From Thermoplasmata archaeon (GTDB lineage Archaea; Thermoplasmatota; Thermoplasmata; Thermoplasmatales; GCA-001856825), in NCBI GenBank assembly GCA_021792255.1, contig JAJYUZ010000004.1, forward strand, positions 99,468 to 163,467: a stretch of DNA of 64,000 nt. Reading direction: 5' to 3'. Made by a program: the position numbers and the translations under genes. The notes below the pieces were generated by a model. It searched no databases and was not told where the DNA came from. It saw only the letters and a list, made by a program, of their open reading frames with translations. Below, piece by piece: positions 32,529-64,000 of the stretch (the stretch's first letter is position 1; every line of letters begins with the position of its first letter).

Positions 32529-33649
32529 TTCACATTCTCCTCCAGGAATTCAGATACTTCTTTCACTTTGAGGTCGATTCCATTCGTCTTTCCGCTGTCG
32601 GTGAGGTTCATGTTGCAGACCGGGCAGGCAGTCAGGACGGTCTCGGCGCCTGTGCTTCTTGCCTGCTCCATTCTGAAATCTGAAAGTCTCTTGCCTTCAA
32701 AGTCGATGAACATTCTGTTACCGCCACCTCCGCAACAAAGACTATTCTTTCCCGACGATTCCATTTCCTTGACTTCGATGCCTGGAATCGAGTGGAGAAT
32801 CTCTCTCAGGTCGTCTCCCCCTCCATCGTAGCGGCTCAGGTAGCAAGGATCGTGGATCGTTATCTTTCCGGTTTTTCCCTCCTTGAAGCTTAGCTTCCCT
32901 TTCTTGACCAAGTCATTGAGGTACTCCGAATAGTGCTTCACTTCTATCTTCAACCCCCTCTCTCTGTAGTACTTTTCAAACATGTGCTCACAGTGAGGAG
33001 AGAAGGCGACTATGGTCTTTGCCCCCGTCTTTTCGAACGTTGCTATGTTGTCTCTAACAAGGTCGTCCAGGTAATAAGCTTCTCCAGCGTTTCTGACAGG
33101 TTCGCCACAGCACCTCTCCTTGTTTCCAAGAGTGCCGAAATCCACACCTGCCTTCTTCAGTAGATCGGCGAGCGATCTAAGCGAGCCGTGGAGATTCTTG
33201 TTGTAGGCAGCATCGCAGCCCACATAAAGGAGGACATCGCTTCCATTATCTGCGTCCTTGATTTGTAGACCCTCTGACCACTTTGATCTGTCGGACTTCT
33301 TTCCTCCCCAGGGGTTCCCATTCTCGTAAATGTCCCAGAGCATGGCAACTATCTTATCGGGAGCCTTCCTGTCCTCAAATTCCAGTTGTCTGAGCCCCCT
33401 GATCACGTTCACGATGTTCACCTGTCTTGGACAGCTATTTTCACATAGCTTGCAGGTGGAGCAGTTCCATATCCCTTCGGAGAGGTCAAGACCTATCTGG
33501 GCCCTCCTCATGAGATTCCTCGTGTCTATCGTCTCTTCACCCATGTAACCGAGTGGGCAAGTTGCGGTACAAGCTCCGCACTGGAAGCATTCGTTTCCAT
33601 CAAAACCTGTGAGATTGGTTACCTTCTCCCACCTTGAGTCATCTACCAC
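32525..33649 (-). CDS. HdrD/GlpC-like Fe-S oxidoreductase (2x4Fe-4S plus two CCG domains)
   Basis: CFQCGACTATCP, CSTCKLCENSCP, ERCCG, HDPCYL, CCGGGG, TACPVC. Confidence 0.9.
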   Translation of the reverse strand: MVDDSRWEKVTNLTGFDGNECFQCGACTATCPLGYMGEETIDTRNLMRRAQIGLDLSEGIWNCSTCKLCENSCPRQVNIVNVIRGLRQLEFEDRKAPDKIVAMLWDIYENGNPWGGKKSDRSKWSEGLQIKDADNGSDVLLYVGCDAAYNKNLHGSLRSLADLLKKAGVDFGTLGNKERCCGEPVRNAGEAYYLDDLVRDNIATFEKTGAKTIVAFSPHCEHMFEKYYRERGLKIEVKHYSEYLNDLVKKGKLSFKEGKTGKITIHDPCYLSRYDGGGDDLREILHSIPGIEVKEMESSGKNSLCCGGGGNRMFIDFEGKRLSDFRMEQARSTGAETVLTACPVCNMNLTDSGKTNGIDLKVKEVSEFLEENVK

Positions 33650-47679: not shown

Positions 47680-47746
47680 ACTTCTCAGATTCTTCTAATT
47701 TTTTTTCACTTCTTTTCTCTGGAGTCAGATCCGGATTTTGACGTAG

Positions 47747-47821
47747 TGGGGCCGATCGGATTTGGACCGACGACCTCCCGGTTATCAGCCGGGTGCTCTA
47801 ACCAATCTAAGCTACGGCCCC
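47747..47821 (-). tRNA. tRNA-Ile(GAT)
   Basis: GGGGCCGTAGCTTAG...CCCGG-CTGATAA-CCGGG...GGTCCAAATCCGATCGGCCCCA; T-loop is atypical. Confidence 0.92.
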
Positions 47822-47897: not shown

Positions 47898-48020
47898 TCA
47901 ATAATTTGTCCCTTCGAGAATTTGTCTTGCTATTCTCTTGACCTCCTCCTCTTCGTCAGCAACTCTTCTCATTTTTTGGAAGAAATTCTCTTCCGATATA
48001 GTCTCGAATTTCTCACTCAT
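47898..48020 (-). CDS. 40-aa hypothetical protein
   Basis: MSEKFETISEENFFQKMRRVADEEEEVKRIARQILEGTNY; BRE/TATA-like sequence at ~48051-48065. Confidence 0.45.
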   Translation of the reverse strand: MSEKFETISEENFFQKMRRVADEEEEVKRIARQILEGTNY

Positions 48021-48064
48021 ATGACATCTGTATGATAATTGTCTGACAACTATTAATACTTTAC

Positions 48065-48173
48065 TGCAGACCGGGCTTTGCACATAAAGTCAAGGAATTG
48101 GCCGACTTTACGTACGCTTTAAATACTTTGTGTGCAGGAAGCACTTCTTGTGCAGAATGGACTTTACGTGCAG
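48065..48173. repeat. left end of element A: 9-bp duplication, TIR and four subterminal 14-bp motifs
   Basis: GACTTTACGTACGC 48104, TACTTTGTGTGCAG 48124, CACTTCTTGTGCAG 48142, GACTTTACGTGCAG 48160. Confidence 0.85.
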
Positions 48174-48349
48174 AAGTGAAATTCTCAGATGGGCATCTTC
48201 GGCGTATGGTAATGATTTGGTTATCTTCGCTTAAGGATCCTTGTTATTACTTCGCTATCTTTTAACCGTATCCCATATATTACCTATGGCAAACATTGTA
48301 TCTTCTGTATCTCTTCAAGAGCCTCTTTTACTCAATAACACAAAGGTTG

Positions 48350-48862
48350 TTACTCTAGGGTAACCTCTCCACCGCCAGAAATTCTTATTGTAGCCCAATG
48401 ATAATTTTGTGTCTGAATTACCCCTTTAATCATCTGCTGTTGCGTCCTTCTATTACCATCCACATCTGAATGATCCAAGAAGACAATTCTATCGACTCCC
48501 CTGGCATTCATTCCATCAAATACCACAAAATCTACAGGATGAAATAATGTCTTTACATCTTGGGGGTTAAATCCGCTATCGATTAGTGATGGAATAATTT
48601 TCTTAAGTCTCTTTGGAAGCTCCCTTTGGGTCGCTTTGTTTATTGCCTTATCTCTCATCTCTCTTTCTCGAGACTCAAGATCGTCCATTTTCCCCTGTAG
48701 TTCTTCTTGCTTTTTCTCAATTCTGTCCAACCAATCGGGCACATACTCTGAGTTGTATGATATCTGGATGTCAACTAAGCGGAAAAGGGTCGTGCAGTGA
48801 GGACAAACTCCGAAAATATGGCGCTGTTCCCTTATTAGTGTTGATACCGACATATCGTTCAT
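48350..48862 (-). CDS. Holliday-junction-resolvase-like (Endonuc_Holl-type) protein, catalytic (E/D)xK apparently lost
   Basis: CPHC, coiled coil, DVKTLFHPVDFVVFDGM...IVFLDH. Confidence 0.75.
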   Translation of the reverse strand: MNDMSVSTLIREQRHIFGVCPHCTTLFRLVDIQISYNSEYVPDWLDRIEKKQEELQGKMDDLESREREMRDKAINKATQRELPKRLKKIIPSLIDSGFNPQDVKTLFHPVDFVVFDGMNARGVDRIVFLDHSDVDGNRRTQQQMIKGVIQTQNYHWATIRISGGGEVTLE

Positions 48863-49356
48863 AACTTGTACAACTCCAACTCCACTTTTTTTAGTCTAAC
48901 TGCATCTCTAATCTGTCTTTGGTTAGTCTTGAGTCTAGCACTACCAGTCTTGACATCTGAAAATACAATATTATCAACTAGATTCTTTACCGTAAGTCCA
49001 TCGAAGATCAAGTAATCTATTGGTTCTCCGAGGAATCTGCAATCATTAATGTGATATGGGAAACCTGGGAGTATAGGACCTACTTTTTCAACTATCTTAC
49101 CAACCTTGACTTCTATCGATTTTTGTGGAGCTCCTTTGGTGATTGATTCTTTTTTCTTCTTAATGTCCTCTTGTAATATTTCAAGTTCTACTTCGAACTT
49201 CTCTTTTTCTGTTTTTCCCTGAGAAGAGAAGAAATCAGAATAAAATAATCCAGCATTTTTCAGTTTGAACTGCTCTCCACAAGTTGGGCACTCACCGATA
49301 TATTTCGGGTCATTCGAAAGTTCATCTATTAATCCTTTGACCTGATGAGGCATCAT
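48859..49356 (-). CDS. Holliday-junction-resolvase-like (Endonuc_Holl-type) PD-(D/E)xK endonuclease
   Basis: CPTC, coiled coil, DCRFLGEPIDYLIFDGL...IVFSDVKTG.ARL...QRQIRDAV. Confidence 0.82.
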   Translation of the reverse strand: MMPHQVKGLIDELSNDPKYIGECPTCGEQFKLKNAGLFYSDFFSSQGKTEKEKFEVELEILQEDIKKKKESITKGAPQKSIEVKVGKIVEKVGPILPGFPYHINDCRFLGEPIDYLIFDGLTVKNLVDNIVFSDVKTGSARLKTNQRQIRDAVRLKKVELELYKL

Positions 49357-49449
49357 ATTGGACTACTGAGTGCCAGTATAAAAATAACTTTACCAATTAA
49401 AGTGTACTCTAAAAATGAAAAGAGATAGTCGACATACCCTATCGTTAGA

Positions 49450-50472
49450 TTATGAGGAGAAATTTGGCTCAATTCCCAGCTCGTACATCTCCTGAATCAA
49501 GACTAGAATGTTGTATGCGATCGCTTTGCATAGCAGCTCATTTTTTTGAGCAATTGGGTTCTTCGATTTTAGTGAATCTCCCAGCTTCTGCTTCATAGAA
49601 AAGAAAGTTGTCTCGACGTTGGATCTTGCGTGGTAATGCCTTTCAAATTCTTCCCTGTTGTATATGAACATTGCATACATCTTTCGATATATTTTGCTAC
49701 CCTTGGGTTTGCCAGTCGAATTGCTCTTAAAAGGTATATATGGAGTGCCTCCAATATTATCTATAAACGACAGATTCTTTCGTGAGAGATATGCCTTGTC
49801 CGCGTAAGCTTCCTCTATACTGAATCCAAGTCCTCTAGTTCTCTCGATCAGCGGCATAAATTGTTTTATATCTGCACTGTTCGCGTTTCCGATTTCGATC
49901 GCTGTTATTATATTAGTTTTTACGCCTATCGTAATATGGGCCTTTATCCAATTGTATTCTTTCTTGAGCCCATATTTCTGTAAGGCATACTCAGTAAACC
50001 TACTAGTTCTGAAACCAGAGCTATCTGTGGCAAATCCAGTTTCAACCGACCTCAAAGGCAGAGATGTTTTAGAAAGCAAGTCTTGTAGGATTTCTGTAAT
50101 TTCAGGTCTATTTAGGACTCTGGAAGAAATATTAAAGTGGGGTTTGTATACGATTTGACCCTTCTCCAGCGCAGAGATTAAGAAAGAGGCAGATCTTCTG
50201 ACCGACAGTTGAGAATACACCTTTTGAATCGTACAAAAGAGCTCATCCCTCAATAACGTTCTCGGTCGCCCCATACTTTGCAAAGGCTCATTTACGTCTG
50301 AAACCAAATCGCTTAGCAGTTCATTGAATATCCTAAATTCTTGGGTCTGGGCTAGGTTGTAAGCCTTCCAATCCTGTGGGTACGTAACCTTGATGGTCAT
50401 TAGTACCGACACATCTCTTTTATGGGAGTTATTGTTCCTTGCTTGCTCCGGTGGTTCTTTCACGGGCTCCAC
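49450..50472 (-). CDS. DDE transposase, IS4/IS5-like (DDE_Tnp_1 type)
   Basis: TYPQDWKAYN.AQ, ATDSSGF, WIKAH, ADKAY, YHARSNVETTF..KQKLG. Confidence 0.9.
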   Translation of the reverse strand: MEPVKEPPEQARNNNSHKRDVSVLMTIKVTYPQDWKAYNLAQTQEFRIFNELLSDLVSDVNEPLQSMGRPRTLLRDELFCTIQKVYSQLSVRRSASFLISALEKGQIVYKPHFNISSRVLNRPEITEILQDLLSKTSLPLRSVETGFATDSSGFRTSRFTEYALQKYGLKKEYNWIKAHITIGVKTNIITAIEIGNANSADIKQFMPLIERTRGLGFSIEEAYADKAYLSRKNLSFIDNIGGTPYIPFKSNSTGKPKGSKIYRKMYAMFIYNREEFERHYHARSNVETTFFSMKQKLGDSLKSKNPIAQKNELLCKAIAYNILVLIQEMYELGIEPNFSS

Positions 50473-50500
50473 CTTCTATCCAAAGATCCTTTTGCTGCCA

Positions 50501-50601
50501 TACCATATTACCGTAATACCGTATTGTCTACTTGAATATTAATATTGCGGTATCATGGTAAAACGGTATGCAAATATTTAATACCTTGATACCATATTAC
50601 C
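50501..50601. promoter_or_regulatory. divergent promoter with nine TACC/GGTA operator half-sites at 8-bp period
   Basis: TACC at 50501/50509/50517, GGTA at 50549/50557/50565, TACC at 50582/50590/50598, interleaved with TATA-like AATATTAATATT and TATTTAATA. Confidence 0.7.
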
Positions 50602-50604
50602 AGG

Positions 50605-50760
50605 GTGGAGAAAAGAAAGACATCAATAAATGTAGATCCTGACCTGTGGAATCAGTGGCTTCATTTTGTTTTAGATGAAACGGGTTCAACGAAGAAAGTA
50701 AGCGAAGAATTTGAAAAGGCACTTAAATTCTATATGAAGAGTAGAAATAAGGTTCATTGA
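50605..50760 (+). CDS. 51-aa ribbon-helix-helix DNA-binding protein, below the ORF-track cutoff
   Basis: MEKRKTSINVDPDLWNQWLHFVLDETGSTKKVSEEFEKALKFYMKSRNKVH: KTSINVD strand followed by two helices. Confidence 0.78.
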   Translation: MEKRKTSINVDPDLWNQWLHFVLDETGSTKKVSEEFEKALKFYMKSRNKVH

Positions 50761-50810
50761 ATTGAACGTAACTTTTCATACGACCTGTAGACAATTCCAG
50801 CCGGAATTTA

Positions 50811-53696
50811 CTATCCCTTAGCTTGTAATTCTTCGGCTATTATAGGGTATAAGTCGTCGATTATCTCATTTGCCTCATTTTTATCAAGACCCAAAATTTC
50901 TAGTACAGTAGAATCGAGAAGTCTTCGTTCGTCTATGTTCTTAACATACTGTTCAAGAATAGATGGGAAGTCAAATTTCTTTAGGCGTTCAAATAAAGTC
51001 TTGAGGACAAATTTCCGCTTGTCATCTAATCTGTCAAAGTTCAGTATGTCAAATGAAATCAGTTCACTTTCTCTTATATCAGTGAAGCCACCTGTTGTTT
51101 GTTCGCGATATGATAGTATATTTGCAATTGTTATGCTACTGTTAAGGAGTAGGGTTTGAGTAAATGCTTCTTCTTCACTTTTGAAATTTAAATTCTTGAA
51201 CGTATCTGGAGCAACAATTTTCTTGCTGGAGTAAAATGCAAAATGGTGAGTATTCCCTGAGTTTGGTCTGAATCTACGGCCAACGACCACATAACTCTCT
51301 TTCTTAGCAACATTCTTTTCGTGTTCTATCCAATTAAATTGTCCCTTCCACTTGGATATCGCTAATATTCTATTGAAGTTCTGAGGCTCACGAACGAGTA
51401 TATAATCGATTGATTCTGGGTTGAATGTTTTAACCGCAGTCAACGTTCTTAGTGCTGGCTTTATTGCGGAGTAAGGAATTTCTAGAGAGAAACTTCCATT
51501 TCCTAATTCTACACCTACTGAAGTTTTATATTCATTCTTGAGTACCAGGAATGCTCTCTCTACTCTTGCTTTGTCTGTAGAACGGGTTATAAAGACCAGT
51601 TCTGAAAGACCTGCTGGAGATGCATGGAACCCTTCTGAAATTATATCTCGAGGAATTTTCATCAATAGTCCATTTGACCTTGATCTGACTTTCTGCAAAA
51701 ACGAATCTAAAACATTTTTGTTTCTATATGAAGTAAATCCAATGAGAGGCATCAGATTGTCAGAATTTTCATTTAAACTCAGAGTTTTTATAAACTTGAC
51801 TTCAAACTGATTGGTGCTTTCGTCTCTGTGTGCCAGATAACAGGAGTTAAGTTCATAAGTTAGTTCCTTTAGTTCCTTCTCAGACATTTCTCTAATAGAT
51901 TTCTTTAGTGTTACAATTCCAGTATAGTCTATACTTTCAGGTTTTCCTTTCCTTGCAATGTATAACAAATCCTTAAAAGAAGAACCTTCGCTAAATGCAC
52001 GGTCTTTCAAAGGCTTTACAAAAAACTTGGCTTTATAATTTCGTAAAATGAATTCTCTTATCAGTCGAGTTGCTCTTCCTCTTGCAATATTTATTGGAAT
52101 TACGGCTGCAATTTTTCCATTAGATTTAAGCAGTTTATCACCGAGTGCCAAGAAATAACCCCAAAGATTTACTTGATTACCGCATATTCCGCGTAAGGTG
52201 TTCGAATTTAATTTGTCTCTCATTTCCCTAGGCATCTTTTCCCTATCACTGAAGGGAGGATTCATTATGACCAAATCAACTGGACGTAGAGGGAATGCCG
52301 AACCTCTGCCCTCACTAGAAACTGAGCCTTTTTTTCTCAGCAGTCTGTCATTATCTTCCTCTACAAGTGATTTCTGTATTGTTGCAGAATAGGGCTTTAC
52401 AACATATTTTCCTCTCTTGAATTGTGTTGTATCAAGTACTTCTGCCAACTCTAATGAATCCTGGGTCGCTATTCTCACGATGTTAGTCTTTTCTTCTATA
52501 CTCTGCATTGTTAAGTTAATGGCAGAAATGTGAGCGGCAAATGGCATTATGTCGATACCTGTTATGTCATCTTCAACGAATTTCCTATGAATTTTAGCTA
52601 GGTCTCTATCCCCGTATTCCTCCTGATATAAGTCTCTCTTTCTGTTGTAGCTAGAAACAAGAAGAGTTCCCGATCCGCATGCAGGATCAATGAGTGTTTC
52701 ACTCCATTTGTCTATTGCGAGTCCCGTCAACAAATCCGCTGAAGCAGGATGTGTATAAAATGCGGCTAAGATTTTTCTTACCTCAAACGGAATTAAATCA
52801 TGAAAAAATCTCCCTGCCAAGTCGTGTGTGATGTACTCAGCTCTCAGTAATTTTATAGCTTTAATTACCTCGTTAAGAATTTCTATTACATCCTTTGTTT
52901 CTGGAATATGAGCTAGAAGATTAACGCTATAAATTGATTTGTAATCTATATCTGTTATTTTATCGAAATAAGTCTTTATCCCTTGTAGGTGTTTTATTTC
53001 TTCCAAATCGAAAAAAGCATCATCGTCAAACTTAGCCTTCCTCTTGTATATGTGATAGAAGAGCAACTGATTGAATAGAAGAAATGATGCAAGATTTGTG
53101 ACTTGCTTTTTAGCAACCTCCTTATCTTTAATCTCTCCAATGGAAACGAATAAGTCAAGTTTGTTTACAACTTCAGAAACAAGTTCATCTGTTCGAATCT
53201 TAAAGACAACGGAATTGAGGTCGCTGGCGTATCTTTCAATCAATTTTACGGTGGTTGCGAAGTCAATCTTTGTCTCTCTTGCATCTATCAACCTCTTTAG
53301 TTGCTGAAAAAAAGAGGTAGGATTAGACGAAACAGTTTCGGTCCACAGATCTGTGAGAGTTGTGATACTCAGATTTGCATTCAGTGCGATCCGTCTAACT
53401 ATTTCATAATCGGTTATCGCTTCTTTACGTATTGAATCAGGATATATTAGAATAATAATATTTGGGGTTTTCAATCTTGTTCCATAATCATAAGCTTGAG
53501 CTACTGCTTTTAACCCTACAAGTTCAGGTTTTCCAACTTTAACTTCGATAACAAAGGACAAAGAGCCATATCTGAACAAAATATCCGGTTCGACGTCTTC
53601 GACAATCGTATTCCCAATTGCTTCGAATCCTAGCTCTTGAAGAAGTTTAATGATCGGAGGGTACAATGTAGTTTCTTCAATTCTCGGGTAAGCCAT
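50811..53696 (-). CDS. type IIG-like fused restriction endonuclease/N6-adenine methyltransferase
   Basis: N-terminal PD..VIEVK, AFYT, DPACGSG, GIDI, MNPPF; 961 aa. Confidence 0.9.
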   Translation of the reverse strand: MAYPRIEETTLYPPIIKLLQELGFEAIGNTIVEDVEPDILFRYGSLSFVIEVKVGKPELVGLKAVAQAYDYGTRLKTPNIIILIYPDSIRKEAITDYEIVRRIALNANLSITTLTDLWTETVSSNPTSFFQQLKRLIDARETKIDFATTVKLIERYASDLNSVVFKIRTDELVSEVVNKLDLFVSIGEIKDKEVAKKQVTNLASFLLFNQLLFYHIYKRKAKFDDDAFFDLEEIKHLQGIKTYFDKITDIDYKSIYSVNLLAHIPETKDVIEILNEVIKAIKLLRAEYITHDLAGRFFHDLIPFEVRKILAAFYTHPASADLLTGLAIDKWSETLIDPACGSGTLLVSSYNRKRDLYQEEYGDRDLAKIHRKFVEDDITGIDIMPFAAHISAINLTMQSIEEKTNIVRIATQDSLELAEVLDTTQFKRGKYVVKPYSATIQKSLVEEDNDRLLRKKGSVSSEGRGSAFPLRPVDLVIMNPPFSDREKMPREMRDKLNSNTLRGICGNQVNLWGYFLALGDKLLKSNGKIAAVIPINIARGRATRLIREFILRNYKAKFFVKPLKDRAFSEGSSFKDLLYIARKGKPESIDYTGIVTLKKSIREMSEKELKELTYELNSCYLAHRDESTNQFEVKFIKTLSLNENSDNLMPLIGFTSYRNKNVLDSFLQKVRSRSNGLLMKIPRDIISEGFHASPAGLSELVFITRSTDKARVERAFLVLKNEYKTSVGVELGNGSFSLEIPYSAIKPALRTLTAVKTFNPESIDYILVREPQNFNRILAISKWKGQFNWIEHEKNVAKKESYVVVGRRFRPNSGNTHHFAFYSSKKIVAPDTFKNLNFKSEEEAFTQTLLLNSSITIANILSYREQTTGGFTDIRESELISFDILNFDRLDDKRKFVLKTLFERLKKFDFPSILEQYVKNIDERRLLDSTVLEILGLDKNEANEIIDDLYPIIAEELQAKG

Positions 53697-54320
53697 TAGT
53701 TTTTCACCTTTGCTGTCACAAACAGTCTCTTTTTTGTCATACCAATCTGTTTCTTATGATACCATAGTATCACGTTACTTATCCTTTATTGTAATGAGCT
53801 GCTTAGAATAAGAAAAGAGAAAATAAGGGTGGGAAGAATATAAAGGAAGGAAACAGATATTAGAGATAGAAAGGGAGGTGTAATTGCAGGATCCACACCT
53901 TATTTTAACTCGCTATTTGTTTTGGACGGCCATAAACGGTAAAAACTCGATGTTCAGGCAGGTTAATGGCTCCCTCAGATCCTTCGAACCCTCCCCTTAT
54001 AAGAAGTCAATATGAACCGTGCACTACAACGCCTTAACAACCTGACTGCAAGTATTGCTACTAAAATCAGTACGCTTTGAATCAAAAATAAGAGTCTTGA
54101 CTCTTCGCCATTCGATTAATCTCATTAGGTGAATCTAAAGTTATTCACCGGTTTTGCTTCACTTTCTGAGGACATCTATCTCGTGACAAGAATGGTATAA
54201 TTTTCCTCTTGCTAAGAGCATAAGATCACTTGGTGAGTTCTCGAAAAGGGACTTTCCCTTAAGCTAAAAAAGTTATAATATCTGATGATCTTAGTAGAAT
54301 GATTATAGGAGTGAGACCAA

Positions 54321-56120
54321 CTGAACCCGAATGATTCACATAGCGGCATTAAAATTACAGAGATAAGAATTCGCAATTTCAGATCTTTGAAGAGTGTAAG
54401 TGTGCCATTAAACTGGTTGACAGTTTTGATCGGAGAAAATAATGCTGGAAAAAGTAACTTCATTGAGGCGATGAGAATAGCTATAGGTATAGGCGCAAGA
54501 AGAATTGAGAAAGAAGATATTTACGTCGATGTCGAAGAGACAGATCCTCCTGAGGATAGAGAGGCTATTATTGATTTGTTGTTAAGGCCAATTGATAATC
54601 AAGGTGAAACCATTAGCAAATTTCCCGACAACGACTATTGGCTAAACCTATGGGGGGCTGGTATATCGGAAAACGACACTCTTGGTGAATTCATGGCAAT
54701 CAGAACAAGACTATACTGGAACAAGGAAGAAATGAGATATGAAATTGAAAGAAAATACCTAAAGGATTGGCAGCATGATCCAGAAAAAATCGGCCAATCC
54801 AAGACGAAAGAAATAATACGTTTTGATCAGATAGAACCCGTATCTTTATATGTCTTAGACACAAACAGAGATGTTAAAAATGATCTTGTAAAGACTGGTT
54901 CTATATGGCATCAGATGGTTTCTGCCACCAAATTTGACGATTCAGACAGCAAAGATATCGAAGGCAAAATCGAAGAATTGAATCAAATAATAAATTCAAA
55001 CAAGTTTATAGTGGAGATTAAAGAAGGTCTGAAGGAGCTTAGTAAGACTTTTAATTCAGGAAGTGACTCCGTTGCGCTAACCTCTATACCCAGTAGGACA
55101 AGAGATTTGATGGACAATGTTGGTATTAACTTTGCAACAAATGGGGCAGGCTCATTCCCAATCGAACGACATAGCTCTGGTACCAGAAGTGTCGCATCAG
55201 TTTTAATTTTTAAGACTTACATAGAACGGAGAATGAAACTGGATAATGAACGGAAAATACACCCAGTTTTAGCAATTGAAGAACCTGAGACCCATTTGCA
55301 TCCTCAAGCAGAAGACTCGTTCTATAGAATCGTAAAGAATTTTTATGGTCAAAAAGTAATAAGTACCCATTCTCCTCGAGTGGCAAGTTTATCAGGACTT
55401 CGAGATCTACGGTACTTCTACAAGACTGGCAGTGAGACAAATATTGTCTCGATGGAAAACGATTTCTTATTGGAAGAAGACGAACACCTTGTTAGAAGAA
55501 AAGTCCTAAAAACACATGGTGATATATTTTACTCTAGAGCAATCGTTTTGTATGAAGGAGAGGAAACGGAGGATCAAGTACTTCCGCTTTTTGCATTAGA
55601 GTACTGGGAAGAAGAATATTCCTCTTTGGGAATCACTATGGTAAATGTAAATGGACAAAAGTACTATCCTTTCCTTCTACTTGCCAAGACCTTCCAAATT
55701 AAGTGGTACATATTTTCAGACGGGGAGCCTAATACTGTTGCAGCTGTTGAGAATGCTGTAAATAAGATTGGTACCAAAATTGTTTCGCCAAATATTGTCA
55801 TACTCCCAGACGGAAAGAGTTTCGAGAAATACATATCAAGTAACGAATATAAAGAAGTATTAAAGGAAATGATTGTAAATGTCAAAAGCAAAAACGAATA
55901 TCATAAAAGGGCACTTGAAGCAGAGTGTGAAAAGTGGACTTTAGATGACTTAATTAACGAGTTAAAGGATAATAAAACATTATATGCTCCAAGAATAGCT
56001 CCTGCGATTTTATCTGTCAAAGACGAAGAACTTCGATTTCCTGCAAAAATAAGAGAACTGTTTGAAAAGATTTCTAATGATTTTGGTTTTAAAAGGAGGG
56101 ATATAGATCATAGATCCTAG
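54321..56120 (+). CDS. OLD-family ABC-ATPase/TOPRIM nuclease (GajA-like)
   Basis: IRIRNFRSL, GENNAGKS, SSGT, IEEPETHLHPQ, STHSP, TOPRIM YEGE.E and SDGE; start appears non-canonical (CTG 54321 or ATT 54348; ORF track uses TTG 54387). Confidence 0.9.
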   Translation: MNPNDSHSGIKITEIRIRNFRSLKSVSVPLNWLTVLIGENNAGKSNFIEAMRIAIGIGARRIEKEDIYVDVEETDPPEDREAIIDLLLRPIDNQGETISKFPDNDYWLNLWGAGISENDTLGEFMAIRTRLYWNKEEMRYEIERKYLKDWQHDPEKIGQSKTKEIIRFDQIEPVSLYVLDTNRDVKNDLVKTGSIWHQMVSATKFDDSDSKDIEGKIEELNQIINSNKFIVEIKEGLKELSKTFNSGSDSVALTSIPSRTRDLMDNVGINFATNGAGSFPIERHSSGTRSVASVLIFKTYIERRMKLDNERKIHPVLAIEEPETHLHPQAEDSFYRIVKNFYGQKVISTHSPRVASLSGLRDLRYFYKTGSETNIVSMENDFLLEEDEHLVRRKVLKTHGDIFYSRAIVLYEGEETEDQVLPLFALEYWEEEYSSLGITMVNVNGQKYYPFLLLAKTFQIKWYIFSDGEPNTVAAVENAVNKIGTKIVSPNIVILPDGKSFEKYISSNEYKEVLKEMIVNVKSKNEYHKRALEAECEKWTLDDLINELKDNKTLYAPRIAPAILSVKDEELRFPAKIRELFEKISNDFGFKRRDIDHRS

Positions 56121-56121
56121 A

Positions 56122-57963
56122 TTGACAGAAAAACAGCGAGAAATTATTGAATCAAGCAATGAATCAATGTTAGTGGTTGCTGGCCCCGGCGCGGGAAAGA
56201 CTAAAGTGATAACTGATCGAGTAAAGTACGTACTTACAAACATAAGTGGCAACTTTCGTGTATTGGCTCTCACGTTCACGAACAAAGCAGCTAACGAAAT
56301 GAAAGACCGGTTATACGAAATTCCCGATCTGGAAAAGAGGGCCTTTGTCGGCACTATTCATAGTTTCTGTAGTTCAATATTGAAAAACAGGGGGGAACCT
56401 GTAGGTTTGGGAGATGATCTGCATATTCTGAACACAATCGAGGATAGGAAGAAAGTACTGATAGAGTCATTAAATCTCGATCCAGAGCTCAAGAATACTC
56501 TAAAAAGTACTTTAAGTGATCAAAATCAGGAAAAATTGTTGTCTAAGTGGCTAGAAGCCATTAGTCAATTTAAACGAGATCTTATTCTACCAGAAATGGT
56601 AAAAGAAGAGACAGATAGACGAATTTACGAAATTTATGACTCGACTATGAGAGCGTCGAATCTTTTTGATTTCGACGATTTGTTACTGAAAACCTATACA
56701 CTCTTTGTCAGTAACCCTTCTATTCCAGAGTTCTATAGAAGGCTGTACAAGTATATTTGTATCGATGAAGCTCAAGATCTTAATAGAGCACAATATGAAA
56801 TAATCAGATTAATGTGCGAGTCAAATCACAATAATGTCTTGATGGTAGGAGATCCTAATCAATCAATATTCGGTTTTGTAGGAGCTAATAAAAAGTATAT
56901 GGACTTGTTTGAAAAAGATTTTGATGCCAGAAAGATACATTTGGATGAAAATTTCCGCTCAGCCAAAGCAATAACGACCGCAGCCCGCAAAATAATTCCT
57001 GATGTGGACATCAATGAAAATCTGCCCGTAAATGGAGTTGTGTCCCTTATCGTAGGAAACGATGAAAAAGAAGAAGCCGAACTAGTCCTGAAAAAGTTGA
57101 AGGAGTTTGTTAACAATGCCGATTCAACTGAAGATAAACTTACTTGGAACAGTTGTGCTTTGATTGGGCGTAATAGATACGTCTTGTATCCTATCGAGTC
57201 GGAACTCATATCGAACGGAATACCCTACTATAAGCAAGAATCTATCAAGCAATTAAGCGAATCAGATCTGATGAAAGAATTCGAATTGGGACTTGAAATT
57301 CTATCTAATCCTCAAGATTTGCTCCATCTGAAGGCTCTGCTGAGTAGATGGAATTCATCGGTAGATCCTAGAGATCTCGTAGATTCCGGAATTCAAGGAC
57401 AAGAGGTCATAAAAAGACTTAAGAATTTAAGTGTTACAAAAAACGATGTGGTATTAGAGGCCCTTTCAAAGGTCTCGACTGGACCCAATAAATTCTCTCT
57501 GAATGAGTCATTAGTATTTTTGAAAAATAGTACAGCTGGAATAAGAGATACTGAAGAAAGAGAACTACTGATAAAGGATATCACGGAGTGGAACACTCTG
57601 TGGAATTATTATCTAAGAAATCAAAATCTTATAGAGCGTTCACCAGCTAAATTTTTGAACTTTACAAGCGAACGCTCGATCAAAAAGGAGGACAATAATG
57701 GACTTGCTTTACTGACAGTTCACTCTGCGAAGGGACTGGAGTTCGAATTAGTAGTAGTTATGGGGATGGTTGAGGGGGTATTTCCAGACTATAGGGCACA
57801 TGGAAAAGATCTGGACGAGGAAAAGAGGAATGCATTCGTATCGATTACAAGGTCTAAACGTTTTCTTTTTTTGTCTTATCCCAAAACTAGACTAATGCCA
57901 TGGGGGGAAATATTCAAGGTCAAGCCGTCGAGATTTCTATTCGATATTGGTCTACTCCCGTAG
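56122..57963 (+). CDS. UvrD/Rep SF1 helicase (GajB-like)
   Basis: AGPGAGKT, TFTNKAA, IDEAQD, VGDPNQSIFGF, NFRS, TVHSAKGLEF, FVSITRSK; follows the OLD nuclease. Confidence 0.92.
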   Translation: MTEKQREIIESSNESMLVVAGPGAGKTKVITDRVKYVLTNISGNFRVLALTFTNKAANEMKDRLYEIPDLEKRAFVGTIHSFCSSILKNRGEPVGLGDDLHILNTIEDRKKVLIESLNLDPELKNTLKSTLSDQNQEKLLSKWLEAISQFKRDLILPEMVKEETDRRIYEIYDSTMRASNLFDFDDLLLKTYTLFVSNPSIPEFYRRLYKYICIDEAQDLNRAQYEIIRLMCESNHNNVLMVGDPNQSIFGFVGANKKYMDLFEKDFDARKIHLDENFRSAKAITTAARKIIPDVDINENLPVNGVVSLIVGNDEKEEAELVLKKLKEFVNNADSTEDKLTWNSCALIGRNRYVLYPIESELISNGIPYYKQESIKQLSESDLMKEFELGLEILSNPQDLLHLKALLSRWNSSVDPRDLVDSGIQGQEVIKRLKNLSVTKNDVVLEALSKVSTGPNKFSLNESLVFLKNSTAGIRDTEERELLIKDITEWNTLWNYYLRNQNLIERSPAKFLNFTSERSIKKEDNNGLALLTVHSAKGLEFELVVVMGMVEGVFPDYRAHGKDLDEEKRNAFVSITRSKRFLFLSYPKTRLMPWGEIFKVKPSRFLFDIGLLP

Positions 57964-58596
57964 ACAAGAACTCTCCATACCTAGTAAATCTCAGCAGACT
58001 TTTGATCCAATAACTAGATAGATTATGTCGAATCCTTTTCGATTTTTAGTTTTAAGATAGATCTTAGATACCAAATGAACATCATTTGACACTTTGTGAC
58101 GTAGTCTTTACTCATTATATGATTTGACGAAATTTCTGTGGGTAGGAGGTTTGGTAACATGGCAGCACATAATAGTCTAAAATCTGAACGGGTTCCCCTT
58201 TTGCGCCATTTCCAAGTGTTACAAATGTACTTAATGCCTCCCTTTGTCCAAGAGCAAGCAGATTGGGCCTCTTACACATGTTGACTATGCTCTAAAGGGG
58301 CAATCTGATGAAAATCGCTTTAGAGAACTTTTCCATGTTTTTGTCTCTTATCTGAAATGATTAATCATATTTGGAAAACTAGATTTATCTCATATTAACC
58401 CTTCAAATGCAGAAAGCGTAGTTCAGTCTATGTTCAACGATTTCTGCAATAAATGTGGATTCAAGACTTCTGTAATGGAAGAAATATGGGAAGAGGTTCA
58501 TAGAATTTTCAATTATAAACGGAAGAATTGAATAAGAGTGATATGCCCAAATGTAATCGATATCGCCCTTAAATTGACATTTAGTATGTCTTTTAG

Positions 58597-59673
58597 TCAA
58601 TTTCCTGAAGGAGTAATAGTGTTGAGATACTCAGTAGCTTCTTTCCTTGTGGTCAGTTCCTTCCTAACGTATTTAATGTCTTCAGTGCTTTTTTCATGAA
58701 TATTACCCAGATATCGGGATTGTTCCCCATAAATAGATGCCTTCAATTTGTTTGAGTTATATGAAGAAATATTCTGATTTGTATAATCGTAAACAAATTC
58801 TGCAAGGTCAAAATCTACTCTCTTATTAGTGTTGCTTCCTCCTCCCCCAGGAAGAACGGCATTTGAAGCCCCTATTATGTCGAATCCAAGGAATGACAAC
58901 AAGAATTCCTTTGCTAGGTCTCTCTTCTTATTCTTGCTCATTCGGGGTCTACTAACGTTATAAGCGTAATATATTGGGTAATAACCCTCAGTTATGTATT
59001 TTCGTTTGAGCTCAAGCAACTTTGCTATAGACCTCATGTATCCGTCCGGGTTGGCTCTCTTAAAATCTATCATCAGTGGTATAGCATTCAATTTTTCTCC
59101 ACCTTCCGAGATTACTTGCTCCTTTGCCTTACCGGAGTAGAAATTGACGTACTTCTCCAGATCATTATAGCTAACATATGCTGGGATATAACCTAAGAGA
59201 TTTTTCCCGTCTAGCACACTTGAAAATGTCTCGTAAATCTTGGTGCTTTCTTTAAAAATCTCTTCAAAAGCTCCCTCTCTGTAGAACTTAAAGGAATATG
59301 GCATACCGATCAAATGATCATTAAACAACACTTCAAATTTGCTGAGTAATCCTATGTCTTCGAAGTTTGCAACTTTTTGCGGGTCTACTTCTTTATCTCC
59401 GAAGAAAGAAAATACATTTATGTTTCCTTCGACTTCTTTCTTCTTGATCCTTTGTTCTATTCTCTTATCAAATTCCTGGTAGCTATCTTCACCTGGCAAG
59501 TCGTCTGAGCTAATTGGGACGAGAACTTCTGAAAAGTATTGATCATTAATGACCCCGGGAACCTTTCTGAAAGCACGAGAAGGTGTCTTTCTTCTAATTC
59601 CTTCTCTATTTGATACAGAAAGAGAATAAATGTTACTATCATTTTCACTTCCAGGCAAAAGATTAAATCTCAT
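58597..59673 (-). CDS. hypothetical protein, possible TGT-like TIM barrel
   Basis: 358 aa alpha/beta pattern (KTP, LLGYIP, MIDF, YAYNV, LGFDIIG); fold guess only. Confidence 0.6.
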   Translation of the reverse strand: MRFNLLPGSENDSNIYSLSVSNREGIRRKTPSRAFRKVPGVINDQYFSEVLVPISSDDLPGEDSYQEFDKRIEQRIKKKEVEGNINVFSFFGDKEVDPQKVANFEDIGLLSKFEVLFNDHLIGMPYSFKFYREGAFEEIFKESTKIYETFSSVLDGKNLLGYIPAYVSYNDLEKYVNFYSGKAKEQVISEGGEKLNAIPLMIDFKRANPDGYMRSIAKLLELKRKYITEGYYPIYYAYNVSRPRMSKNKKRDLAKEFLLSFLGFDIIGASNAVLPGGGGSNTNKRVDFDLAEFVYDYTNQNISSYNSNKLKASIYGEQSRYLGNIHEKSTEDIKYVRKELTTRKEATEYLNTITPSGN

Positions 59674-59726
59674 AACAATCGATATTGATTACTAAACATA
59701 TATATTTTCCCAAATGATAGACTTCT

Positions 59727-60326
59727 GTGCCTAAAGAACAAAGGAAGAAAACACTTGACCTATTCACTATTGGCGACCTTATAGACAAGGCAATCGTCTT
59801 TCTAGCAACGAACAATACTATCACAACACTAAGCTTACAAAAGGCAATATTCCTCTACTTGTATTCATACGCTGTTACTAACGGTTATGATTTCAATAAT
59901 GTTCTTAGAATGGCTTCATTCGAACCGTATAGGTTTGGCCCCTTCAGTGATGCTGTAGTCGGTCAAGCAGAAACGCTGGTTGGATACGGGAAAATCCGAA
60001 GTGGAGGATCTGGCGAGAAGCAAATCTTCGGTACGATTGACAAAGGTCTTGAAAAGCTTAATTTGAGCAAAGACGAAAAGAGACTACTCACTAATATTAA
60101 AAAACTGGTTGAAACCCTTGAACCAATGGAATTAACTTTTTACATCTATTTCAATCCGTTAATAGATCAGTCACTAAGAGATTATTTCACTTCAAAGTCA
60201 GAAATAAAGGATAGCCTATTAAAGCGCAAGGATACTTATGTCAGAGACCTTCTTAAAAAGGGTGCAATTGACGAAGAAACTGCCGAATTGATGATTTATG
60301 GGAACAATCAAGACACGATTAATTGA
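59727..60326 (+). CDS. SocA/Panacea (DUF4065)-like antitoxin
   Basis: LSLQKAIFLY...FEPYRFGPFSDAV motif. Confidence 0.7.
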   Translation: MPKEQRKKTLDLFTIGDLIDKAIVFLATNNTITTLSLQKAIFLYLYSYAVTNGYDFNNVLRMASFEPYRFGPFSDAVVGQAETLVGYGKIRSGGSGEKQIFGTIDKGLEKLNLSKDEKRLLTNIKKLVETLEPMELTFYIYFNPLIDQSLRDYFTSKSEIKDSLLKRKDTYVRDLLKKGAIDEETAELMIYGNNQDTIN

Positions 60327-60861
60327 CACGGATGTCATATCAAATATTTTGAAAACCCTTCCCAAGGGAACCATTAAATATGAAATCAATGAATTGGAGA
60401 ACTTTAGAATCGTAACGTCAAACATAGTTGAAAAGGAGGTTCGGATTTTGCTAAGGAAGATTGAAAATGGTGATACTCGTGGATTAAGAGGTAAAAAAGT
60501 TTTAACAGAAGAAACAGTTTCCCTCTGGAAGCAATTTAAAAATGTAATTGAAATCAAAGAATCTATTGTTGATCCTTCTCAACTTAAGAATGTTGGTGAA
60601 AGGTCGCTTGTAAACTTGTTGAAAAGAGCTGATTTGAAATCTAGAATTGTATCAAATAACAGAGAACATGTCCTAAAAATCTTAAAAGAAGAAGGGATAA
60701 ATGGAAATTTCTTGGAAACGCCATTTGAATTCTATGAAGAATTAGGGAGAGAATGGTTCAGGAGTAGAAGCGAAACGATTCTGTTTATGATTTTTGCTAA
60801 TCACGACTTCCGCATCTTAGATAAGAAGTATACTGGAGATATTTTGAGATACGTTCACTAA
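60298..60861 (+). CDS. PIN-domain protein (putative ribonuclease toxin)
   Basis: LIDTDV, IVEKEV, VGERSL, IVSNN; overlaps the upstream gene. Confidence 0.68.
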   Translation: MGTIKTRLIDTDVISNILKTLPKGTIKYEINELENFRIVTSNIVEKEVRILLRKIENGDTRGLRGKKVLTEETVSLWKQFKNVIEIKESIVDPSQLKNVGERSLVNLLKRADLKSRIVSNNREHVLKILKEEGINGNFLETPFEFYEELGREWFRSRSETILFMIFANHDFRILDKKYTGDILRYVH

Positions 60862-60989
60862 CCAACTTACTTCTGCATAATTTCTGTTCACTCAACTGAA
60901 GATAGATAGGACATTTTAGAGCCGATATAGGCTCGGCTAATAGGTTTAAGTTCCAATGAATTCTTGGGATTTGCATGATAAAATAAGTA

Positions 60990-62477
60990 GTAATTGGTCA
61001 GTTTAATGTGCACCTTAACCCGGATGTGGTTTGCCTCTTCTTATCATCCCAGGAACATCCCTGATGAAACTCTTCTTCCTGATCTTGGTAGTATAGAAGA
61101 TGGAATGCAATCTTGCATAGGTACTGGCACCGCGATCTGACCTCGACCCACCAGATGTCTTCCTGTATATGACTGCTGGCCTGAGTGCCCTCTCCGCCCT
61201 GTTATTTGTGGAATCAACACTTGGATCAACCACGAACCTGAACAGCCACTCTTTTCTCCTCTTAAGAAGTTTTTCAACGGACTTCCTTGAACGGAGGTGT
61301 TCGTAACCGGTATCGAGGAGGAATATAAGCCTGTCGTACAGGCGATCAACATCTTCAGATGTGCCATTTCCGTTGAACGATTTCGCCTTATTGTAGATTG
61401 ACTTCAGTGATTTCTTCATCCTCCTTCCCTCATTCCCATAAAACGATTCGAGTTCCCTTGCGTCTGATATTATGTGAGCCCAGCAGTACTTCTGATCGTT
61501 GTGCGTCTTTGATGCTAGCGTTTCGAATGCTGAAAACCTGTCGTGGACATCCGTTCCGTTGTGCTTTCCGAGTACTTTGAGTGCTACCTCGTGACTATTG
61601 CTCTCCGCCACAATGAATATCGCCTCCCCTTTAGTCACGAAAGTCCATAGATCGCAGTTCTCTCCGTCTATTCTGTATGACGTTGTGTCCATATTCCTTG
61701 ACGGAGCTTTCCTGATGGATTTCAGGAGACTTCTGTATTCATCTCCGAGTGCATCAGAGAGCTGGTACAGAATTTCCTGCACCTCCACTTCAGATATTTT
61801 AAGACCGAACACCTCTTTCATTGTAACTGAAACGTTCTCAAGGCTCATCCTCATTGCAATCCTGAAGTATGATGCAATGAGCATCGCCCTCAAGGACAAC
61901 CTGGTGTTGGGAAGTGCTTCCGGCATCTGTGGCTCATATGTCTTACCGCAATTCTTGCAGTACATCCTCTCTATTCTGTACTGCACAACCCTGGGACGTA
62001 TTTCAGGGATGTCCTCAATCACCCTCTTCCTGATGCCCTTCCTGACGAGAGGAGACGAGCACATAGGGCAGGTGAATTCTCCTGCCTTTAGAGTGACTCT
62101 TTCTGTTACTTTTGGAGTTCTCCTGAAGTGTCCCTTATGACCGAGCTGTGCTCCAGGGTTCTTGGTGCTCTTCTCCTTTTGGGAATGTTCCTCCATGATA
62201 AAGTACGCCTTCCCATTCTTCACTCCCACGGTGGAGGGATGCCGTTTCTTGTACTCTTCAATCTCCTTCTTGAGTCTCTCGTTCTCCTCCTTTATTTTCC
62301 TGATCTCATCACCGAGCTTCTTGTTCTAGTCAACAAGATAATCTACGATCTCCTGATCCCTTGGAGTCTCTGCGAGCAGTGCGATCATCTTGCTATTATA
62401 AAGTGGTAGTATTCATGATTTATGGTGATCAAACCCGGTAAATTACCACTGTCAAGCACAATCGGCTGACCTGTTAC
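60990..62477 (-). mobile_element. IS66-family insertion sequence (single-ORF, ISBst12-like)
   Basis: TIRs GTAATTGGTCAG... and ...CTGACCTGTTAC; 8-bp TSD AATAAGTA at 60982-60989 and 62478-62485. Confidence 0.92.
61015..62388 (-). pseudogene. IS66 transposase with an in-frame TAG at codon 21
   Basis: coiled coil, PGAQLGHKG, CPMC..CKNC, DTTS, CWAH, TNNRAERALRP; TAG at 62326-62328; reinitiation at GTG 62229 is possible. Confidence 0.8.
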
Positions 62478-62530
62478 AATAAGTAGAAGACTTTATGATT
62501 CAGATATTTTTATAGTTTCATCGATAAATA

Positions 62531-63259
62531 ATGCCTCTTATGATAATATGGAGAAAAATTGGAACCATCAATCAATTTAGAGTAGCACTGCATCAGCTTA
62601 TCGAAGCCAAGGGCGACGAACTGATATTAAGCTCAGGCTACGTCTCACATGGTTCTCAGTTTTCAGTTTACGACCAGTCAAATATACTCCCTTCTATGAA
62701 GGTTGCCATCGCAAATGGATTAAAAAATGTGACAATTAGAGCAGGCAAATTTAGAAGGTTTTCACAATCTACTCCCACCTCGTTGAACGCCTTACATCAT
62801 AACATAAATGGGAACAGCTCTTATCAGGAAAGGTACGAAGAGTTTCTTTATAATTTGATACCATTCTTGAAAAGTAATCTAACCAGCATCAACATTAATG
62901 CGTATATCCATAATAACTGGCATGCTAAGGTCGCAGTCAGAGCCGATCAAGGAAGACCTTTTGCTGCAATAATTGGGAGTAGTAATTTGACATCAACGGC
63001 GTATGGAGTATATCCGAACAACTACAACTGGGAATGCGATGTTCTAATTTGGAGAGCGGATTATCCAGTAATCAGGGAATTTAGCTTCAGTTACGATGAA
63101 AATAGAGAGGGAAAAGACGATAAAATCATTCACTTTGCATCGAAATCTGATTACTTTTATTTTGAATATCTTCCAGAAAGGGATGAGGAATCAAGATTGA
63201 TTGGCATATATAATGAAGTTAAAAATGCCGAAGGAGGTATAAGAACACCAACTGATTGA
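62531..63259 (+). CDS. PLD-family (NgoFVII/BfiI-like) nuclease
   Basis: SSGY, WHAKV...IIGSSNLT...N.ECDV single HxK domain. Confidence 0.8.
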   Translation: MPLMIIWRKIGTINQFRVALHQLIEAKGDELILSSGYVSHGSQFSVYDQSNILPSMKVAIANGLKNVTIRAGKFRRFSQSTPTSLNALHHNINGNSSYQERYEEFLYNLIPFLKSNLTSININAYIHNNWHAKVAVRADQGRPFAAIIGSSNLTSTAYGVYPNNYNWECDVLIWRADYPVIREFSFSYDENREGKDDKIIHFASKSDYFYFEYLPERDEESRLIGIYNEVKNAEGGIRTPTD

Positions 63260-63275
63260 TTTTTGTGCCTTCATA

Positions 63276-63456
63276 TATTAAATGTGCAACCTCGATCTTA
63301 TGTGCAAGATTGACTTTATGGGCAAAAACGACTATTTGTGCAAAGCCTGCAGACCGGGCTTTGCACCTAAAATCAGGGGTTTGTCGTCTTTTAGGTGCAC
63401 CTTTTATATTTTAGATGCAAGCTGTATTTTAGGTGCAGAGTTGATTATAAGTATAA
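63276..63456. repeat. junction: right end of element A, 9-bp duplication, left end of element B
   Basis: motifs at 63276, 63294, 63312, 63330 (18-bp period); TGCAGACCG 63348-63356; GGCTTTGCACCTAAAATC 63357-63374; motifs at 63387, 63407, 63425. Confidence 0.85.
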
Positions 63457-64000
63457 AACCTAATTGCACTGACCCTAATCTTCTACCGGAGCGGTGTATT
63501 GTTCTAGAAGTTGATTGGCCAAGAATGTGACAAACGCTCTGTTGTTACCTTTGTCAGCGACTTCTATTGCATCATAATAACGTTCCTTGTTTACAAACTC
63601 AATTATGACCGGCGGATACTTGTTCCTGAAAAGAACCCAATTCATAAGGAGCCTCGCAGTTCTCCCATTGCCATCTGTGAAAGGGTGTATATTGACAAAT
63701 CTGTTATGTAAGACTGAGGCAAGTTCCACAGGATGCAGTTTCTTCTTCTCTAGTCTAAAGTCGCTGAACAGGGTTTCGATCAGAGTTGGTATGTAAGCCG
63801 GATTAGGAGGAATATGCTCTGATCCCATTATGCGCACATCGCTGTCTCTGTACTCGCCTTGAATTCTGCAAGACGTATTCTTTGTGACTTCGTATTGAAC
63901 CTTACAAACAAACGATTTGTTCAGTCCATCTTTGTACGTTTTTATAAACTCCCAAGCATCTGCACTATTGAGGGTCTCAATAACATCATTCGTTCTTGCA
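63357..64000. mobile_element. left part of a second, related transposon (element B), running beyond the window
   Basis: TIR and subterminal motifs at the same offsets (+30, +50, +68) as the left end of element A. Confidence 0.75.
63475..63999 (-). CDS. Fic-domain protein (5' end outside the window)
   Basis: IHPFTDGNGRTARLL; frame stays open to the window edge. Confidence 0.93.
   Translation of the reverse strand, partial: ARTNDVIETLNSADAWEFIKTYKDGLNKSFVCKVQYEVTKNTSCRIQGEYRDSDVRIMGSEHIPPNPAYIPTLIETLFSDFRLEKKKLHPVELASVLHNRFVNIHPFTDGNGRTARLLMNWVLFRNKYPPVIIEFVNKERYYDAIEVADKGNNRAFVTFLANQLLEQYTAPVED

Follow-up and report, generated by a model that had tools for sequence, protein, structure and literature searches.

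The closest known relatives of the transposons described here, in mechanism or in outcome, are the Ty3-type retroelements of yeast, the integrative islands at tRNA genes, Tn7 and Tn7-like elements, the insertion sequences (ISs) IS903 and IS903B, and casposons. The transposons were found in a 64,000-nt stretch of DNA from a Thermoplasmata archaeon (G000:C11:99468-163467, the whole of which is called the window), where a cargo transposon, element A, is separated by nine base pairs from the beginning of a second one, element B, and where contig C11 terminates at window position 64000. Both belong to one family with a DDE transposase, and the archaeal members of this family probably choose their insertion sites by the upstream edge of a promoter. 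Ty3 and other retrotransposons insert at a fixed position by the TBP-containing Pol III initiation complex, and the promoter stays usable; the Ty3-type elements are long terminal repeat retroelements tethered by TFIIIB, whereas the elements treated here are DNA transposons and any tether is hypothetical. The tRNA-gene integrative islands and tycheposon-like arrays accrete ordered cargo at one spot, likewise the case here, and they do so with tyrosine or serine recombinases and a constant att core, in contrast to a DDE transposase and site-specific 9-mers.

Tn7 and Tn7-like elements at attTn7 resemble the family in the constant distance kept from a flanking feature that is left intact, in their asymmetric multi-site ends and in their defence cargo, defence systems being presented as cargo of Tn7-like elements in the relevant part of PMC8649781. 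On the other hand, element A has no TnsA/B/C/D-type genes, as Pfam and NCBIfam scans of its proteins found no rve-type TnsB, TnsA or TnsC (relatives were checked for Tns genes through 20 sampled cargo proteins), and the duplication here is of 9 bp against the 5 bp of Tn7. Moreover, the target immunity of Tn7 would prevent the stacking that is seen in this family. Casposons are archaeal as well and duplicate their target, and a part of PMC6563490 describes two of them integrated in tandem at a single target. They use Cas1 and PolB and make longer duplications, whereas protein scans of A and of the window contained neither a Cas1 integrase nor a family B polymerase; the preliminary description of this locus, drawn from the bare sequence, had likewise reported that the genes of Tn7 and casposons are missing. 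In the passage concerned, the same 2019 survey (PMC6563490) gives cargo-carrying DNA transposons as undetected in archaea.

In the case of IS903B, section 3.5 of PMC10569121 gives ends that begin with GGCTTTG and a 9-bp direct repeat. As far as that section goes, the family is like IS903 and IS903B (IS5 family) in its DDE_Tnp_1 transposase with the Y-R-E-K pattern, its GGCTTTG ends and its 9-bp repeat. It differs from IS903B in falling below the IS5 cut-off, in the SWIM zinc finger of most members, in four to five subterminal repeats with an asymmetric arrangement, in a length of 2.5-15 kb with cargo, and in a one-sided target on the side of a promoter. Full-text literature searches, with ISfinder, supplements and subscription journals outside their scope, turned up neither an account of the family nor one of its target rule.

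Elements A and B and their family

The boundaries of the two elements and of their shared target are as follows.
48065..48073: target-site duplication copy 1, TGCAGACCG
48074..63347 (+): element A, cargo transposon, 15,274 bp
48074..48172 (+): transposase-proximal end of A, with a flipped terminal motif and four internal motifs spaced ~18-20 bp apart
49450..50472 (-): DDE_Tnp_1 transposase of A, 340 aa
63262..63347 (+): transposase-distal end of A, with five motifs in one orientation and at 18-bp spacing, the last being the terminus
63348..63356: target-site duplication copy 2, TGCAGACCG, the spacer shared by A and B
63357..64000 (+): element B, cut by the contig end; 63357-63456 is a transposase-proximal type of end

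The 9-mer TGCAGACCG occurs in the window at 32614, 48065 and 63348, with about 0.29 copies expected by chance, and three or more copies were reached in 0 of 100 shuffles; the copy at 32614 sits amid unrelated sequence. The terminal sequence GGCTTTGCAC is found exactly at 48074(+) and 63357(+), each time directly after a copy of TGCAGACCG, and its exact reverse complement occupies 63338-63347, directly before the second copy. The inverted ends of A extend over 18 nt with 89% complementarity (48074-48091 against 63330-63347). The order is hence A, a single copy of TGCAGACCG and the left end of B, and a second element does begin at the same 9-bp target, as first proposed. Since both left ends are of the transposase-proximal type, A and B, which are two distinct members of the family, have the same orientation. 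The junction is crossed with zero differences by contigs of X5 (62413-63576) and X1 (62832-63539), runs of two different studies, one of which may be the source sample of the assembly. Of B, 644 bp are visible, and no other contig end of the assembly overlaps the end of C11. A scan of A for internal ends found no further family ends, and a nested or composite origin of A was therefore rejected.

Motifs of the GTGCA type finish at +42, +62, +80 and +98 from the terminus in the left end of A and at +42, +62, +81 and +99 in that of B, so that the equal offsets noted in the preliminary description hold to within 1 bp. The difference in consensus that it reported, about CTTTRYGTGCA in A and TTTTAGGTGCA in B, is also real, based on four motifs per end. 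One point of it needs correction, in that the internal motifs are not inverted between the two ends of A: all of them point in the same direction, and the only flipped motif is the terminal one of the transposase-proximal end. This asymmetric layout is kept in relatives.

A search of the species-representative genome collection gave 39 loci with the palindromic junction GTGCAAAGCC-N9-GGCTTTGCAC; GTGCA-type repeats lie next to it at about 21, and the other ~18 are unrelated hairpins. The GTGCA-flanked junctions belong to Pyrinomonadaceae, other Acidobacteriota, Planctomycetes, Acidimicrobiales, Thermoplasmata, Methanosarcina, Methanocellaceae and Micrarchaeota. Among the 12 proteins of A, the DDE transposase is the sole one with tblastn matches in junction loci (9 loci, 38-56% identity). 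It matches PF01609 with an E value of 2.7e-23, and D150, D225 and E287 as well as Y280/R283/E287/K294 are invariant in transposase alignment A1, where the first three residues can be read as the catalytic triad. The IS5 equivalog cut-off is missed (the best NCBIfam model, NF033579, gives 115.6 against 140 bits), and the nearest named plasmid elements, ISRusp1 and IS903B, show 26-27% identity by tblastn (26% for the IS903B family). Terminal repeats that start with GGCTTTG and the 9-bp target duplication are traits of IS5/IS903; the family is nevertheless not made of simple ~1-kb ISs with a transposase only, as all 35 listed complete elements carry extra open reading frames (ORFs) besides the longest one of about 400 aa. 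The transposase of A is a remote and ordinary-looking enzyme of the IS5 family, and the one that drives these elements. Most homologues have ~400 aa and an N-terminal SWIM zinc finger, which is missing from the transposase of A and its closest relatives (77-84% identity, 337-344 aa); no remnant of it was found in the 340 bp upstream of the gene (gene and upstream stretch together, window 49450-50810).

A search with the transposase alignment, in which 80 of 263 confirmed genome loci, 11 viral-contig loci and 80 of at least 522 confirmed metagenome loci were examined, gave 263 genome stretches and at least 522 metagenome stretches as confirmed relatives, so that the family is widespread, with hosts among Thermoplasmata, methanogens, Micrarchaeota, Altiarchaeota and some bacteria. 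Perfect 9-bp direct repeats, specific to each site, flank 11 of the 13 relatives in which both ends were typed. A general pipeline delivered 15 complete elements in a first set and 23 in a second, and the complete relatives with perfect 9-bp direct repeats of their own number 34. The listed 35 complete elements span 2.5-6.2 kb, the element at L184 spans 10.4 kb and A 15.3 kb. Their cargo is mostly of the restriction-modification kind: in a sample of 20 out of 118 ORFs, 12 encode restriction-modification or type IV restriction proteins, two encode SDH-type proteases and six have no Pfam match. One element is found at several sites (L260, L261 and L267), and another at two (L290 and L295), which indicates recent movement. 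Some members of ~2.5 kb contain tRNA genes as cargo, namely tRNA-Leu(TAG) and tRNA-Ser(GCT) at L177:933-1140 and L280:884-970, and copies of 143-166 bp that resemble miniature inverted-repeat transposable elements are present in arrays of Pyrinomonadaceae (L014, L025).

A TATA-like box at the insertion edge

Next to the first duplication copy, outside A, the window contains the following features.
47746..47821 (-): tRNA-Ile(GAT), 245 bp away, a neighbour and not the target determinant
47898..48020 (-): small conserved ORF of 40 aa, ATG at 48020, with its predicted promoter facing A
48051..48064 (-): BRE-like GTAAAG and TATA-like box TATTAATA, a promoter predicted by sequence (BRE, B recognition element)

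On the minus strand the flank reads CGGTCTGCA, then GTAAAG, then TATTAATA, with the box 6 bp from the edge of the duplication and 38 nt upstream of the ATG of the small ORF. Over about 50 bp that include the box, identity to relatives from several genera is 86-96%, and these also have a homologous short ORF; the sequence beyond diverges. Between the box and the ORF start, at window 48040-48050, lies a palindrome, TTGTC-T-GACAA, that may be an operator.

The same arrangement recurs at other insertion sites of the family. To count as a box, an 8-mer had to have T as its first letter and A or T at 7 or more of its 8 positions, and its start had to lie 5-7 bp outward from the edge of the duplication, on one flank or the other. 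Such a box was found at 14 of 18 sites of the discovery set (random expectation 0.084, P 2e-12). The rule was then run unchanged on an independent validation set, made of viral and metagenome contigs with sites absent from the discovery set, and again gave 14 of 18 (random expectation 0.153, P 6e-9). At comparison offsets (0-2 and 10-42 bp) these sites gave 2-5 of 18 in either set. Taken together, 28 of 36 complete archaeal relatives carry a box at the edge. When the flanks are aligned on the box they read R-n-A-A-n-C followed by T-T-T-A-W-A-T-A; the selection rule did not ask for the A-A at positions -4 and -3, which 22-23 of 31 flanks have, and the offset is exactly 6 in 21 of 31. Either end of an element can face the box (18 distal and 13 proximal flanks). 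Archaeal promoters have a TATA box preceded by a BRE, and the flank consensus matches this form, oriented away from the element.

An Rfam scan near the target of the window detected the tRNA only. Adjacency to a tRNA gene was rejected as a rule of the family, with a tRNA within 100 bp of the insertion at one of the relatives' 36 loci. This locus (L199:6273-6416, Methanoregulaceae) has a member at a box upstream of tRNA-Ile(GAT), the same tRNA species as in the window, which is probably a coincidence.

The promoter edge occupied by A has been used in other lineages as well. In G007 (L146, G007:C77) this edge is occupied, about 40 bases past the conserved flank, by a miniature element of ~112 bp in which a left end is fused to a right end, with TAAGGTTTG and TTAGGTTTG on its two sides. 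A family left end is found at the same position in G008, after a different 9-mer, and decayed family ends are found there in G005 and G013, again each after a 9-mer of its own; metagenome contigs of X1 and X10 have a B-like end at this position, after TAGCCCGAT. At least three other lineages therefore have family ends at the target position of the window. The site looks empty in G012, G009, G011 and G002, and loose ends after 48062 in X5 and X8, with no family end, may be empty sites. Since the copies of the duplication are alike within a lineage and unlike between lineages, these are separate insertions at one promoter edge.

In the genome of the window, a second short array of family ends stands at the start of another contig (G000 C3:1-2340, L149), where a right end and a B-like left end adjoin and a non-autonomous element of ~1.8 kb with degenerate termini and no matching 9-mers comes next. 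From synteny, it is possible that this array is linked to B. In the relatives L050-L052, whose site seems to be empty, the genes past the target correspond to G000 C11:63674-59600 and then to parts of C6 and C3; the genome of the window therefore has a rearranged gene order at the hotspot, and one breakpoint falls on the insertion site.

Ordered arrays like that of A and B are found elsewhere in the family. Abutting family-like ends are separated by 9 bp in 21 cases, by 18 bp in three and by 8, 10 and 4 bp in one each, where the 9-bp spacers were collected completely and the other lengths are those among the matches listed (119 rows, ~27 of them 9-bp sites). At 11 of 45 loci with at least three termini, an element has the same 9-mer on both sides and another end directly beyond it, and L154, L204 and L184 have this shared-9-mer structure too. 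The third duplication that the preliminary description had predicted for the window is in this way seen in 14 homologous arrays (13 by another count). Five arrays with a visible outer flank (those of the window, L154, L184, L204 and L032) have a box on it. The idea in the preliminary description of a target selection that builds arrays is supported by the 9-bp peak, the shared-9-mer loci and the reuse of one position; the part that did not survive is a tRNA-Ile gene or a fixed sequence as the target.

Probable promoter-edge targeting and the alternatives

The explanation that we favour, and hold to be probable, is that promoter edges are targeted and that B and A are stacked cut-and-paste DDE transposons. 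Archaeal members of the family would pick their target by a feature outside the duplicated 9 bp, on one side only, and we infer that it is guided by a BRE/TATA box whose promoter is directed away from the element; in the window it would be the promoter of the small ORF (48051-64). The staggered cut would span the 9 bp immediately upstream of the BRE, and both the promoter and the adjoining 9-bp copy would survive the insertion. With these two intact, the target would be regenerated and could be cut again. A later arrival would land between the promoter and the resident element and duplicate the same 9 bp anew, leaving the order promoter, 9-mer, new element, 9-mer, old element, and repetition would lead to arrays that share one 9-mer. 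B would accordingly be the first of the two to arrive and A the later one. A one-sided outside feature predicts both shared 9-mers and an exact 9-bp spacing, and both are observed. The box could be read by the transposase itself, through a bend in the DNA, or through bound TBP/TFB. A more specific version, in which the family reads the archaeal pre-initiation complex (TBP/TFB on BRE/TATA, or the bend that it imposes) and inserts at its upstream edge, is offered tentatively. The SWIM zinc finger is unlikely to be an archaea-specific tether in such a process because 11 of 12 bacterial members have it too.

Several observations weigh against promoter-edge targeting. The box rule was framed after part of the discovery set had been viewed, and the box is missing at 4 of 18 sites in each set. 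The boxes are putative promoters by their sequence, and an ORF start 26-37 nt downstream of the box, at distances chosen post hoc, shows a weak excess, with 10 of 21 box flanks as compared with 8 of 31 others (P 0.09). Arrays are a minority among elements with a transposase, with transposase-proximal ends abutting another end in 2 of 29 cases in the discovery set and 0 of 38 in the validation set. Bacterial members also form same-9-mer arrays, and their outer flanks have no common motif, so that the TATA box is not a universal cause of arrays. Finally, a transposase homologue (E<=1e-30) is present in only 3 of 25 genomes of the window's archaeal family, and this, together with the missing SWIM domain, makes the current mobility of A uncertain; part of the hotspot's elements may be ancient or unable to move on their own.

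The alternative that survives best is that insertion is directed by ends: an incoming element would be drawn to the outer edge of a resident end, for instance by transposase bound there, and would cut the adjacent 9 bp whatever the host flank. This predicts the same structure of A, 9-mer and B as a flank-directed choice, agrees with the sharp 9-bp peak in the spacing of abutting ends, and stays live, as a rival or as a second contributing cause, because bacterial members stack with no recognisable flank motif. Nevertheless, it leaves unexplained the one-sided box at solitary insertions, few transposase-bearing elements abut another end, and the same promoter edge is used with different 9-mers and by a lone miniature element in G007, all of which make it rather unlikely as an account of the whole. 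Survivorship alone is considerably less likely. Insertion would then be near random, and copies just upstream of promoters would persist as harmless, intergenic and promoter-distal positions being the least damaging and the cargo perhaps of benefit to the host. Such a process would scatter insertions over intergenic DNA and would not place the box at offset 6 in two thirds of the flanks, with so few boxes at the comparison offsets.

A recombination core, the alternative given in the preliminary description, is very hard to sustain. The palindrome GTGCAAAGCC-N9-GGCTTTGCAC would separate cassettes, and its 10-9-10 layout flanked by direct repeats, found at 39 sites of the genome collection, gives it some appeal. 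However, almost half of those sites are the unrelated hairpins mentioned above, the central 9 bp vary by site and equal the local flanking duplication, as in the 34 relatives with repeats of their own, the left boundary of A is half a site only, the sole conserved gene is the DDE transposase, and Pfam and NCBIfam scans of A contained no gene for a site-specific recombinase. It is equally far-fetched that the locus is artefactual or that one element was duplicated in tandem, through an assembly error or unequal crossing-over. The contig does break within B, and repeats often break assemblies; A and B are nevertheless unlike in end sequence and in cargo, and their junction is crossed by the contigs of two studies, one of them perhaps the source of the assembly.

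If promoter-edge targeting is true, the BRE/TATA-edge rule would be a type of target selection new to prokaryotic DDE transposons and would account for the growth of ordered defence arrays in one place with no recombinase, as well as representing a compact single-protein system with a predictable insertion point relative to a promoter. If it is the pre-initiation complex that is read, the family would be the archaeal DNA-transposon counterpart of Ty3 at TFIIIB, and promoters would serve as reusable docking sites at which restriction-modification and other defence cargo accumulates in ordered arrays, a transposase-driven route to archaeal defence islands.

Cargo of A and B

The remaining genes of A and the visible gene of B are listed below.
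48350..49356 (-): two Endonuc_Holl (PF10107) paralogues with CxxC N-termini, lying between the transposase gene and the end of A
50811..53696 (-): N6-adenine methylase of Eco57I/MmeI type (type IIG-like), 961 aa, a typical kind of cargo for the family
54387..57963 (+): Gabija pair, GajA (OLD-type ATPase-TOPRIM) and GajB (UvrD-type helicase), by PADLOC
58597..60861: three cargo ORFs of 358 aa (no match), 199 aa (weak PDC-M19A match) and 187 aa (weak PIN match)
60964..62479 (-): nested IS66-family insertion sequence, transposase at 61015-62229
62531..63259 (+): PLD-like nuclease ORF, weak matches only
63475..63999 (-): Fic-domain gene of B with an open 5' end, matching the SoFic and PDC-S04 defence-candidate models

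The Gabija genes are adjacent, with a 1-nt gap, and PADLOC gives them E values of 2e-161 (GajA) and 1.2e-204 (GajB). At the place where A has the Endonuc_Holl pair, relatives have mere tens of bases between the transposase and the end, and tblastn detected no counterpart of these two genes in any relative among the fetched loci. The IS66 copy is a separate insertion sequence nested in A, and its insertion is polymorphic, because one metagenome contig is without it and joins 60963 to 62480 with 20 other letters between. In run X5, variant copies of the IS66 stretch, about 8% different, are also present.

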